Under the pieces are notes generated by a model. That model was not told where the DNA came from and ran no database searches. It saw only the letters and a program-made list of their open reading frames with translations. A program made the position numbers and the translations under genes. Of a stretch of DNA of 64,000 bases, positions 3,096 through 28,992 are shown piece by piece (within the stretch, counting starts at the first letter, position 1; the number at the start of each line of letters is the position of its first letter). The stretch is from a phage. The stretch lies in assembly GCA_012628545.1 (NCBI GenBank), contig GCA_012628545.1_3035.1; one strand, 5' to 3'.

Positions 3096-3328
3096 AGTAC
3101 GCCATACACCCTTTGTGCTTCAACTAATCCATCAAAATCCAATTTGAGATGTGTTATTTGGTCACCATCACCTGGATTCACAATTACTAATACTGAACGA
3201 GGAGTTTCGGTAATAACACGAACCGATGTTTCTGGAAATCGTTCAGAAACCTTATTTACCAATTCCTGAGCAAATAGTTTAACTTTTTCTTGGAATTCTT
3301 TAACAGTAATTGGTTTTTCACTTAGCAT
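3092..3328 (-). CDS. hypothetical protein
   Basis: 78-aa ORF downstream of early promoter. Confidence 0.5.
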   Translation of the reverse strand: MLSEKPITVKEFQEKVKLFAQELVNKVSERFPETSVRVITETPRSVLVIVNPGDGDQITHLKLDFDGLVEAQRVYGVL

Positions 3329-3350
3329 TTTGTTTTCCTCATTTGTTTTG

Positions 3351-3869: not shown

Positions 3870-5280
<1,411 letters not shown>

Positions 5281-24520: not shown

Positions 24521-25183
24521 ATGGCTGATTTAAAAGTAGGTTCAACAACCGGAGGCTCTGTCATTTGGCATCAAGGAAATTTTCCATTGAATCCAGCCGG
24601 TGACGATGTACTCTATAAATCATTTAAAATATATTCAGAATATAATAAACCGCAAGCTGCTGATAACGATTTCGTTTCTAAAGCTAATGGTGGTACTTAC
24701 GCCGCGACTGTTCGATTTAATGGAGGAGTACATGTTCCTACTATAGGTAGTAGTCAACAGTGCGGTGTTTATCCAGGTAACGGTGATGCAGCTACCTTTG
24801 CTATGGCAAATATTGACATCGTTTCGTGGAATGGTATTGGTTTTAAATCATCACAAGGTTCAGCAGACCGAACTGTTGTAATTAATGCACGTAATGGTGA
24901 TATTAGTACAAAAGGCGTTATGACAGCAGTAGGTCAAATAAGAAGTAATGCAGTTGCTCCTGTAGCAGCAAATGACCTTACTAGAAAGGACTATGTCGAT
25001 GGAGCAATAAATACTGTTACGGCAAATGCGAACTCTAGAGTGTTACGATCTGGTGACACTATGACGGGTAACTTAACCGCACCAAACTTTTTCTCGCAGA
25101 ATCCTGCGTCTCAACCTTCACATGTTCCACGATTTGACCAAATCGTAATTAAGGATTCTGTTCAAGATTTCGGCTATTATTAA
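24521..25183 (+). CDS. 36: long tail fibre distal connector
   Basis: 220-aa ORF after terminator and late promoter. Confidence 0.9.
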
Positions 25184-25191
25184 GAGGACTT

Positions 25192-28100
25192 ATGGCTACT
25201 TTAAAACAAATACAATTTAAAAGAAGCAAAACCGCAGGTGCACGTCCTGCTGCTTCAGTATTAGCCGAAGGTGAATTGGCTATAAACTTAAAAGATAGAA
25301 CAATTTTTACTAAAGATGATTCAGGAAATATCATCGATTTAAGCATTTCTGCTGGTGGTAATATCAGTGGTAATATTACTCAAACTGGTGATTATACACA
25401 GACTGGAAAATTTAATTTAATTGGTCCGCAAATTGTAGAAAGCGGTGGATATATTGAGTTTAATTATCGTACTATTGGAAGTGGGGCTTGGTCTGGTCAA
25501 CACACTGCAAAAGCTCCAATTTTTGTAGATTTAAGCTCAGCTACTTCCACATCTGAATATAATCCTATAATTAAACAGCGCTTTAAAGATGGAACTTTTT
25601 CATTAGGTACTTTAGTTTCTGAAGGTTCGTTGAAGATTCATTATATCAATGAATCTGGCGATTCGAAATATTGGACGTTTCGACGTGACGGCGGATTTGT
25701 TGTTGACGGTGGAGGTTTAGCAGTATCAGGAGGTAGTATAACTACATCTGGAAATATTGCAGCTCTCGGAAATATTACTTCGCCTCAGATTAATACTAAA
25801 AATATTATTTTAGATACAAAAGCATTTGGACAATACGATTCGCAATCATTAGTTCAATATGTTTATCCTGGAACAGGTGAAGAAAATGGTATAAACTATC
25901 TTCGTAAAGTTCGAGCTAAATCAGGCGGAACCATTTACCATGAAATCGCTTCAGCTCAAACCGGTAAAAATGATGAAATTTCTTGGTGGACCGGAAATAC
26001 ACTTACTACTAAATTAATGGGTCTTCGTAATGATGGCGCAATGGTATTACGTCGTTCACTTGCTATTGGCACAATTACCACTGACGAAAATACTAACAAC
26101 TATGGTTCTCCTACTCCAATGGGAGAAAGATATATTGCTTTGGGCGATGCTGCCACTGGTTTAAAATACATTAAGCAGGGTGTTTATGATTTAGTAGGTA
26201 ATTGGAATTCTGTTGCTTCTATTACTCCTGATAGTTTCCGTAGTACTCGTAAAGCGTTATTTGGACGTTCAGAAGACCAAGGCGGAACCTGGACAATGCC
26301 TGGAACGAACGCTGCCTTTTTATCAGTTCAAACACAGGCTGATGAAAACACTGCTGGAGACGGCCAGACGCATATTGGCTATAACTCAGGCGGAAAAATG
26401 AACCACTATTTCCGTGGTAAAGGCAAAACTAATATTAATACTCAGGAAGGTATGGAAGTTAATCCGGGTATTTTGAAATTGGTAACTGGCTCTAATAATG
26501 TAATGTTTTATGCTGATGGCGGTATTACATCTGTTAAGCAGCTTTCAATATATAATGGCATATATTTAGCAGCTAATAATTCTACTGCTGGGCTAACATT
26601 CGCTCCAACTACTACAATTGATGGCACTAAGCAAATTTTGTGGGAAGGCGGTACTCGTGCTGGTCAGAATAAAAGCTATGTAACTGTTAAAGCATGGGGT
26701 AATTCATTTAACGCATCTGGCGATCGTAATCGTGAAACGGTTTTTGAAGTAGCTGATGGACAAGGATATTATTTTTATTCACAGCGTGTGGCTCCAAGTG
26801 GCTCTGAAACTACTGGGCCTGTTGTAACCCAGTTCAATGGACAAGTTAATGCTAGAGGAAGTATTATTACTGACGGAAGTTTTAAAGTTAATGGATTAAG
26901 CACTTTAGTCGGTAATGTTACCATGTCTAATGGTTTGTTTGTCCAAGGTGGTTCTTCTATTACTGGACAAGTAAAAATTGGTGGAACTGCTGATGCATTA
27001 AGAATTTGGAATGCCGAATACGGTGCTATTTTCCGTCGCTCAGAAACAGCATTACATATTATCCCGACTCCTAAAGATGCCGGTGAAAGTGGTGGAATAA
27101 GTAATCTCCGCCCACTTAGTATTAGTCTTAATAATGGTATGGTACAAATGCGCCATTCTGTTACGTTAGGCGATGATGGCGCTGGCGGTAATATGATTAC
27201 TGTGGACAACGATACCAAACTTGTTGTTGTTACTAGTCATAGTCGTATTTCTCCTAATTACCGTATGCAGGTAGGACAAGCAGCTTATATTGATGCTGAA
27301 TGTACTGACACCGTTCGCCCGGCTGGTGCAGGGTCTTTTGCTTCACAAAATAATGAAAACGTTCGTGCTCCGTTCTATATGAATATTAATCGCACAGATA
27401 CAAGTACTTACGTTCCTATTTTAAAACAACGTTATGTTCAAGGAAATAGCTGTTATTCTTTAGGTACTTTAATAAATGGCGGTAACTTCAGAGTTCATTA
27501 TCATGAAGGTGGAGACGGAAGTTCAACAGGCGCAATTATAAAAGATTTAGGCTGGGAATTTACACGTTCTGGTGATTTTATATCTCCTAAGCGCATTTCT
27601 GCTGGGGGTTCAGTTTATTTAGGTACAGACGGTAACATTACTGGTGGTTCTGGTAATTTTGCCAACTTAAATAGTACAATTGAATCACTTAAAACTGATA
27701 TTGTTTCAAGTTATCCTATTGGAGCTCCGATTCCTTGGCCTACTGATACACCTCCTGAAGGTTATGCCATAATGGAAGGTCAAACATTTGATGTTGGCTT
27801 GTATCCTAAGTTAGCTGCGGTGTATCCTTCCGGCTCTCTGCCTGATATGCGCGGGCAAACTATCAAGGGTAAACCATCTGGGCGTGCTGTATTAAGTACA
27901 GAAGCAGACGGTGTTAAGTCACATAGTCATAGTGCAAGTGCATCAAGCACGGATTTGGGTACTAAGACCACATCAAGCTTTGACTATGGTACTAAGACGA
28001 CAAGTAGTTTCGACTATGGTACTAAGACCAGTAATAATACTGGTGCTCATACGCATAGTTTGAGCGGTTCCACAAACACCGCCGGTGCGCACAGCCACAC

Positions 28101-28413
28101 AAGCGCTCTTTATGCGGGAAGTAACAACTCTCCTGGTACTGGTTCTATAAGAGGATCCGCCGGTGGTGGTAATACGCTTGGAACTTCTTCTTCTGGGGCA
28201 CATTCGCACTCTATATCTGGTACTGCTGCAAGCGCAGGCGCTCACGCGCATACTGTTGGTATTGGTGCTCATACCCATACTGTAGGTATCGGTGCTCATA
28301 CCCACACGGTAGCAATTGGCTCGCATGGTCATACTATCACTGTAAATAGTACAGGTAATACAGAAAACACGGTTAAAAACATTGCTTTTAACTATATTGT
28401 TCGTTTAGCATAA
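25192..28413 (+). CDS. 37: long tail fibre distal subunit (receptor-binding tip)
   Basis: 1073-aa ORF; His-X-His repeats and conserved C-terminus [11 protein letters not shown] as in T4-type gp37. Confidence 0.9.
27958..28030 (+). repeat. tandem 30-nt coding repeat in gene 37 ([10 protein letters not shown] x2.3)
   Basis: Two full and one partial copies with identical peptide but different serine codon families. Confidence 0.6.
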
Positions 28414-28417
28414 GGAG

Positions 28418-28433
28418 AGGGGCTTCGGCCCCT
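28418..28433 (+). promoter_or_regulatory. hairpin between Shine-Dalgarno and AUG of gene 38
   Basis: AAGGAGAGG then GGGGC-UUCG-GCCCC then UUCUAAAU AUG. Confidence 0.45.
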
Positions 28434-28440
28434 TCTAAAT

Positions 28441-28992
28441 ATGAAAATCTATCATTATTATTTTGACACTAAAGAATTTTACAAAGAAGAAAATTACAAA
28501 CCTGTTAAAGGTCTCGGTCTTCCTGCTCATTCAACAATTAAAAAACCTTTAGAACCTAAAGAAGGATACGCAGTTGTATTTGATGAACGTACTCAAGATT
28601 GGATTTATGAAGAAGACCATCGCGGCAAACGAGCATGGACTTTTAATAAAGAAGAAATTTTTATAAGTGACATTGGAAGCCCGGTTGGTATAACCTTTGA
28701 TGAGCCCGGCGAATTTGATATATGGACTGATGACGGTTGGAAAGAAGACGAAACATATAAACGCGTTTTAATTCGCAATAGAAAAATTGAAGAATTATAC
28801 AAAGAATTTCAAGTTTTAAATAATATGATTGAAGCTTCTGTCGCGAATAAAAAGGAAAAATTCTATTATAAAAACCTTAAGCGATTCTTTGCTCTTTTAG
28901 AAAAGCATGAGCATTTAGGTGGTGAATTTCCCGCATGGCCTGAAAAAGAACGGAAACCTTGGTATAAGCGTTTATTCAAGCATTACGTATAA
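28441..28992 (+). CDS. 38: tail fibre assembly chaperone
   Basis: 183-aa ORF; matches T4-type gp38 by length and sequence recall. Confidence 0.85.
   Translation: MKIYHYYFDTKEFYKEENYKPVKGLGLPAHSTIKKPLEPKEGYAVVFDERTQDWIYEEDHRGKRAWTFNKEEIFISDIGSPVGITFDEPGEFDIWTDDGWKEDETYKRVLIRNRKIEELYKEFQVLNNMIEASVANKKEKFYYKNLKRFFALLEKHEHLGGEFPAWPEKERKPWYKRLFKHYV

Follow-up and report, generated by a model that had tools for sequence, protein, structure and literature searches.

Gene 37 of phage GiZh: a probable T4-type receptor-binding needle with an extra stem module and a swapped tip cassette

The distal subunit of the long tail fibre of phage T4, gp37, ends in a needle whose stem comprises residues 882-931 and 960-1009 and whose tip comprises residues 932-959 (Islam et al. 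2019, PMC6957217). The T4 needle holds seven iron ions, one per layer of His-X-His (HxH) motifs, each coordinated by histidines of three chains, and the residues critical for receptor binding are I933, N937, G938, G940, G942, G943, S947 and Y949 (Islam et al. 2019, PMC6957217). It has already been noted that T4-like gp37 proteins carry seven to nine HxH motifs (Korf et al. 2019, PMC6563267), and conserved motifs have been proposed to mediate the swapping of adhesins (Tetart et al. 1998, as cited in PMC3157838). Here we describe gene 37 in a stretch of phage DNA of 64,000 nucleotides (nt) from assembly GCA_012628545.1 (contig GCA_012628545.1_3035.1), hereafter called the window, to which all positions refer. 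The 841 nt around the gp37 repeat region are a 100% match to Enterobacteria phage GiZh (KT184311.1 / NC_054903.1, Tequatrovirus gizh), whose isolation host is given as E. coli O111:NM in the GenBank record. The best explanation of the locus, and one in which we place good confidence, is that it encodes a T4-type gp37 receptor-binding needle with one extra stem module, a tip swapped as a cassette, and repeat copies whose synonymous divergence is old.

Gene 37 of GiZh (25192-28413, plus strand) is an open reading frame (ORF) of 1073 amino acids (aa), deposited as tail fiber protein, and its product shares 67% amino-acid identity with the 1026-aa gp37 of T4. Homology to the family of the T4 needle structure (PDB 2XGF) covers the last 260 residues and extends over the collar, the stem and the return strand (phmmer, E = 2.2e-98, query residues 78-337 against chain residues 2-242), the sole gaps being +10 aa and +9 aa, plus 3 aa each way within a tip that is unalignable; MAFFT agreed with this gap placement. 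While the last 40 residues are the same as in T4, the C-terminal part differs from it in three respects, i.e. an extra 10-residue unit, an unrelated 28-residue segment of equal length, and an extra 9-residue unit, GAHTHTVGI. By the T4 stem and tip limits given above, both insertions fall in the stem, one per arm, and the replacement coincides exactly with the tip. HxH motifs are found on both stem arms, eight in GiZh with spacings of 42, 14, 37, 14, 9, 9 and 9, as against seven in T4 with spacings of 32, 14, 37, 14, 9 and 9. An initial annotation of the window, made from the sequence alone, had correctly recognized gp37 and its length relative to T4, as well as a tandem repeat (here located at 27958-28032) followed by HxH repeats; its statement that such histidines coordinate iron in T4 was also supported, the C-terminus being homologous to the T4 needle.

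All elements of the needle lie on the plus strand. It is preceded by the collar or D10 knob domain (residues 839-909, 27706-27918), which corresponds to T4 residues 811-881 according to Pfam, the 2XGF alignment and the T4 limits in PMC6957217, and in which the phage tail collar domain PF07484 (Collar) was identified at residues 844-891 (E = 1.2e-10, 41.6 bits, cut-off 24). The ascending stem arm, placed by the T4/2XGF alignment (residues 910-969, 27919-28098), is 60 aa long vs 50 in T4, and has HxH motifs 1-3 at H911/913, H953/955 and H967/969, with spacings of 42 and 14. Between the first two of these motifs lie two full copies of a 10-residue unit: copy 1 (27958-27987), which is the counterpart of the single full copy in T4 and differs from it at 1 nt, and copy 2 (27988-28017), which is absent from T4. 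A partial third unit read from the sequence, GTKTS, follows at 28018-28032. The tip subdomain (residues 970-997, 28099-28182) matches T4 residues 932-959 in length and is unrelated to them in sequence, with 35.7% nt identity; within it, a variable distal loop occupies residues 977-986 (28120-28149). On the descending stem arm (residues 998-1056, 28183-28359; 59 aa vs 50 in T4, delimited by the T4 alignment and motif spacing), HxH motifs 4-8 are found at H1004/1006, H1018/1020, H1027/1029, H1036/1038 and H1045/1047. Four 9-residue HxH units of the form GxHxHxVxI (28237-28344) are present in this arm, compared to three in T4, and the protein ends with a return strand into the collar (28360-28413 with the stop codon) whose amino-acid sequence is the same as in T4. 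Tandem Repeats Finder detected the ascending repeats with a period of 30 (2.4 copies, score 104), and repeats of period 27 at 28240-28312 (2.7 copies, score 90).

The two insertions were compared with homologues from three sources. IMG/VR was searched at the DNA level with a degenerate version of the ascending unit, which returned mostly E. coli prophage side tail fibre genes; the GiZh needle served as query in a protein search; and a further DNA pattern called for five descending HxH units spaced 27 nt apart. In 153 of the 156 unique C-terminal sequences obtained, the ascending and descending counts are locked to each other, the spacer between HxH motifs 1 and 2 being 10 times the number of descending repeats (n) plus 2, for n = 3 to 6. 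A spacer of 32 aa accompanies three descending repeats in 58 sequences, one of 42 aa four repeats in 68, one of 52 aa five repeats in 25 and one of 62 aa six repeats in two, with the remaining three sequences showing other combinations. The first two samples fit the same coupling. The sequences with n = 5 and n = 6 had been picked out solely by their descending arm, so that their ascending spacer was a true prediction, which held. With the counts locked in this way, the extra repeats of GiZh constitute one matched stem module, with 10 residues on the ascending and 9 on the descending arm. The symmetric 50/50 limits of the T4 stem suggest an antiparallel register in which the histidine-free ascending units would stand at the same height as the descending HxH units. 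The coupling rule was not found stated in the literature searched, which did not cover Bartual et al. 2010; the initial annotation had overlooked both the coupling and the position of T4 as a short form (see below). A bolder view, which we consider doubtful, is that the stem is a quantised, tunable ruler whose modules are gained or lost only as matched pairs, from n = 3 to 6. Stem length may then be selected so that the tip reaches porins through surface layers of varying thickness, e.g. O-antigen or capsule, and the laboratory phage T4 (n = 3), grown on rough strains, would represent the short extreme.

The arrangement of two ascending copies and four descending repeats is found also in S1P5QW, JQD51, PNJ-9, F2, ECO07P2, AV117 and AV116, which were sequenced independently in the USA, China and Denmark. 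The first six of these have a GiZh-like C-terminus, in AV116 and AV118 the stem is shared but the tip differs, and all of these phages together span two genera. Eight HxH motifs (n = 4) were likewise counted in mar007P3, ST0, JS09, KMB23, AV122, AV116 and AV118, and n = 4 in all 13 non-T4 Straboviridae C-termini examined. Of the records sampled evenly from the 209 phage records that matched, many aligned without gaps through both copies, the T4 group being 57 nt shorter. Judging from these sequences, n = 4 is the usual form among the T4-like phages examined, with T4 (n = 3) representing the short form.

Some of the collected homologues depart from gp37 outside the stem. Three that end in ...SVEQPSYVVY[VI]WKRVA, and four with the non-gp37 ends ...AWYRIS, ...ARWKRTA or ...AWYRSA, have the same architecture, with FDYG ascending units and 9-residue HxH descending units; since this stem occurs with other C-termini, the modular stem is not confined to a single fibre family. 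In one of the first three (L137) a count by eye suggests a spacer offset that deviates by about 2 residues. Also matched by the five-repeat HxH pattern were eleven ORFs consisting of 9-residue runs, e.g. LGGHEHRGS or LGSHQHRRL, in up to 19 copies and without fibre-like flanks, which may not be real proteins. Two further matches represent another protein, with 10-12 HxH motifs of the types G(T/E)HPHG and GAHEHP at approximately 9-residue spacing and a non-gp37 C-terminus, and this may be another metal-binding fibre stem.

As the initial annotation had proposed, the tip itself differs from that of T4, and alignment with T4 gp37 showed essentially no shared sequence across it. The 206 nt from 28031 to 28236, which comprise HxH motifs 2-3, the tip and HxH motif 4, are 100% identical in GiZh, S1P5QW, JQD51 and F2. 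Outside this cassette, identity is 79.5% in the ascending repeats (S1P5QW, JQD51), 83-88% in the descending repeats (JQD51, PNJ-9, F2) and 66-96% in the left flank, i.e. the collar. Relative to T4, nt identity leaps from about 30% to 93-100% at approximately 28279, within the descending array, and holds at that level through gene 38 and t. As the identity changes within the arrays, these are where the junctions of inter-phage exchange lie, and the GiZh pattern is as expected from the proposal on conserved motifs cited above. The GiZh-type tip was found in about ten of 50,697 phage records. Since the cassette occurs in two genera with differing flanks, it has moved between backbones. One of the records, vB_EcoM_PD328 (ON922918.1), is only 59 kb long, and there the GiZh-type tip (98% identity) sits in a gene labelled side tail fiber; the record represents either an incomplete T4-like genome or a phage of another type into which the cassette has moved. 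A prophage was also considered as direct donor and rejected, the best non-phage-like matches being only 64-78% identical, and no donor was identified.

Within the cassette, GiZh and AV117 differ at 10 nt, all of which are situated at 28117-28149, the rest being identical. These correspond to one synonymous change and five replacements (S977D, N978R, T983G, G984S and I986A, from GiZh to AV117), and additional changes in the loop are N979D in ECO07P2 and S980A in PNJ-9; all amino-acid differences of GiZh from AV117 and ECO07P2 are thereby inside residues 977-986. Because the spacing between HxH motifs 3 and 4 equals that of T4, these residues are in position equivalent to T4 939-948, the distal loop, a stretch which holds G940, G942, G943 and S947, residues that in T4 are critical, with others nearby, for binding of lipopolysaccharide (LPS) and OmpC. 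It is in this loop that the cassette diversifies, and the loop most likely contacts the receptor. As for the receptor itself, AV117 was shown experimentally to depend on OmpC and on waaC, mutation of waaR being tolerated, and AV118, with another tip, requires OmpC too (Vitt et al. 2024, PMC10844046). In addition, in a screen of Straboviridae whose adhesin is a T4-type Gp37, 17 out of 17 were OmpC-specific despite extensive tip variation (bioRxiv 10.64898/2026.04.02.716166, 2026 preprint). By analogy with these phages, OmpC is the likely receptor of GiZh, probably together with the LPS inner core.

The strongest competing explanation is that the new tip redirects the fibre from OmpC to another porin, or to the O-antigen or another LPS structure of O111. 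It can draw on a 28-residue tip that is essentially devoid of T4 sequence and has none of the T4-critical residues listed at the outset, on the five loop residues by which GiZh differs from AV117, and on the O111 strain from which GiZh was isolated. Against this stands the requirement for OmpC of AV117, which has the same cassette, and of AV118, which has yet another tip, as well as the use of OmpC by all 17 of the screened phages, and we regard a redirected fibre as unlikely. In view of the same three observations, the changed tip more likely shifts the range of OmpC variants and LPS contexts that the fibre accepts, and less likely the receptor class. The suggestion in the initial annotation of a different receptor specificity consequently remains plausible at this fine scale, while its extension to another receptor class is disfavored.

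A second alternative concerns the codons of the ascending repeat. Copy 1 reads ggt act aag acc aca tca agc ttt gac tat and copy 2 ggt act aag acg aca agt agt ttc gac tat, so that, as was initially noted, the same peptide is encoded with tca agc in the one copy and agt agt in the other. This had been ascribed to selection, possibly against recombination; on such a view, selection for dissimilarity would keep recombination or slippage from deleting a copy. Indeed, the peptides are identical and yet 6 of the 30 nt differ, all of them synonymously, the switch between TCA and AGT is impossible by single synonymous steps, and each of five distinct adjacent pairs with identical peptides found among the homologues differs at 6-8 nt. 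In a simulation, however, in which two independent synonymous encodings of the unit peptide were drawn from the codon usage of GiZh gp34-gp37, the mean number of differences was 6.8 (standard deviation 2.1; P(>=6) = 0.73, P(<=6) = 0.45). The six observed differences are slightly below this random mean, and there is hence no excess dissimilarity; the codon divergence of the descending units behaves likewise in the same test. Residual perfect homology persists between the copies as well, in the form of a 17-nt direct repeat, GACTATGGTACTAAGAC, at 27982 and 28012, i.e. 30 nt apart and spanning the unit junctions. Relatives carry other combinations of serine codons (TCT AGT in the first copy with TCA AGC in the second, and TCA AGT with TCA AGC), and across prophages the unit peptide is encoded in at least 35 different ways. 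In the five identical-peptide pairs the first serine is TCN in copy 1 and AGT in copy 2, and the presence of this split in fibre genes of E. coli prophages as well marks it as old and inherited. Furthermore, the mosaic junctions between phages sit within the repeat arrays, which is the opposite of what repeats built against recombination would show, and the loss of one ascending unit alone would already be counter-selected by the coupling of the arms, so that no extra mechanism is needed. Taken together, selected recoding seems very improbable, and this part of the initial annotation was not borne out. The simplest reading of the codons is an old two-copy state with saturated synonymous divergence and strong selection on the peptide, not deliberate recoding.

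Weakest of all, and extremely unlikely, is a recent host-range duplication of the kind reportedly selected in T4 in the laboratory, or an assembly artefact: the tandem arrangement is superficially duplication-like, but there are two separate insertions of 30 nt and 27 nt, with 219 nt between 28017 and 28237, rather than one tandem duplication, the copies differ as much as random synonymous encodings, as the initial annotation had rightly sensed in arguing against a recent slip, and the arrangement is common to many independently sequenced phages and prophages, close relatives included, so that slippage duplication and artefact were both rejected.

According to the explanation we favor, each chain of the gp37 trimer would ascend a thin stem, form the 28-residue tip and descend again, the extra GiZh module being one 10-residue unit upward matched by one 9-residue GAHxHTVGI unit downward. 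Eight metal sites are predicted, vs seven in T4, and the stem would be longer than that of T4 by roughly 2.5-3 nm, as estimated from 9-10 extended residues. A cassette of about 200 nt would have brought in the tip, by recombination within the conserved flanking repeat arrays. A number of points weigh against this explanation. The five residues that separate GiZh from the OmpC-dependent AV117 lie exactly in the loop that is expected to set specificity, and the O111:NM isolation host is neither a K-12 nor an ECOR4 background. The axial register of the units is a deduction from sequence arithmetic, not coordinates, and the iron predicted at the eighth HxH motif is extrapolated from T4 only. The coupling sample consists mainly of E. 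coli prophage fibres retrieved by motif patterns, and includes three exceptions. Lastly, the structure prediction that had been proposed for the tip was run as an AlphaFold2 monomer model on the C-terminal 259 residues, using an alignment of 56 sequences; for a protein that is an intertwined trimer this turned out poor (predicted local distance difference test, pLDDT, 58.9; predicted template modelling score, pTM, 0.28), gave no usable geometry and was not used.

Mosaicism in the GiZh fibre genes extends beyond the needle. The N-terminal shaft at 25358-25800 (approximately residues 56-205) has only 23-43% nt identity to T4 in 60-nt windows, with insertions and deletions, and a mid-shaft patch at 27105-27280, which includes an 11-residue insertion, has 33-50% in windows of the same size. 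These N-terminal and mid-shaft replacements contribute the remaining 28 of the 47 extra residues of GiZh gp37, which, as its alignment with T4 indicates, is a patchwork over its whole length. In gene 36, a short patch at 24701-24757 shows 47% identity to T4, while the ends of that gene are 95-100% and its middle 75-92% identical. Three short annotations are found inside gene 37 in the GiZh GenBank record, namely 'attP of phage 2851', 'possible StbAB binding site' and a repeat_region, each of 11-13 nt, at positions 3126-3138, 3332-3342 and 4584-4595 of the retrieved record, the last corresponding approximately to 28183-28194 in the window; they look like chance motif matches. An antisense ORF at 27973-28332 (119 aa) was judged to be a by-product of repetitive, stop-poor sequence.

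The neighboring genes of GiZh follow the T4 order of gp35, gp36, gp37, gp38, t and asiA. Next to gene 37 lies gene 38 (28441-28992, plus strand), an ORF of 183 aa assigned to the T4-type fibre assembly chaperones, and not to the gp38 adhesins of the T2/T6 type, by its annotation and its nt identity to T4 gene 38 (90-100% in 60-nt windows, 97-98% in most); the holin gene t then follows. A Pfam search of the 183-aa gp38 gave no match. By analogy with T4, gp38 would be a folding chaperone, in which case gp37 itself would be the adhesin. Between the two genes, at 28414-28437, there is a GC-rich hairpin (GGGGC-TTCG-GCCCC) followed by TTCT, near-identical in T4, which looks like an intrinsic terminator or an RNA stability element. 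A literature search for 'GiZh' found no paper naming the phage.

What GiZh carries here is one allele of an adhesin that is well known, in a genome already deposited and annotated, with a tip allele shared with about ten phages, and the variation in HxH number and in tips among T4-like gp37 proteins has already been published. The matched-module rule is a by-product worth keeping: stem repeats are to be altered on both arms together, which is both a constraint on fibre design and a simple check on annotation and assembly. The boundaries of the cassette (28031-28236) and of the loop (28120-28149) mark where the host range of T4-type fibres can be engineered.

Three known systems bear comparison with the GiZh needle. 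With the T4 gp37 needle it shares the collar, the HxH motifs, the stem-tip-stem topology, an identical return strand and an adjoining gp38 gene, as well as the tip length of 28 aa and the spacing of 37 between HxH motifs 3 and 4; unlike T4, it has 10 aa more in the ascending and 9 aa more in the descending arm, eight HxH motifs vs seven, an unrelated tip, and N-terminal and mid-shaft segments that are mosaic as well. The phages that share the cassette, i.e. AV117 (Mosigvirus), S1P5QW, JQD51, PNJ-9, F2, TH09, ECCR664, PD328 and ECO07P2, all combine an n = 4 stem with the tip cassette, and their tip DNA is 93-100% identical to that of GiZh (for AV117, 88% is found in the tip and 100% in the cassette flanks), whereas their collar and repeat arrays are only 66-96% identical to it. 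The GiZh loop allele is the variant of S1P5QW, JQD51 and F2, while AV117 and ECO07P2 carry another. The side tail fibre (Stf-like) proteins of E. coli prophages, finally, resemble GiZh gp37 in having a collar, 10-residue ascending units, 9-residue HxH units, the same or nearly the same C-terminal end, and adherence to the coupling rule, for n = 3 to 6; they differ in being much shorter (about 200-750 aa), in belonging to other phage types and in bearing other tips, on needles that are 57-78% identical to that of GiZh.

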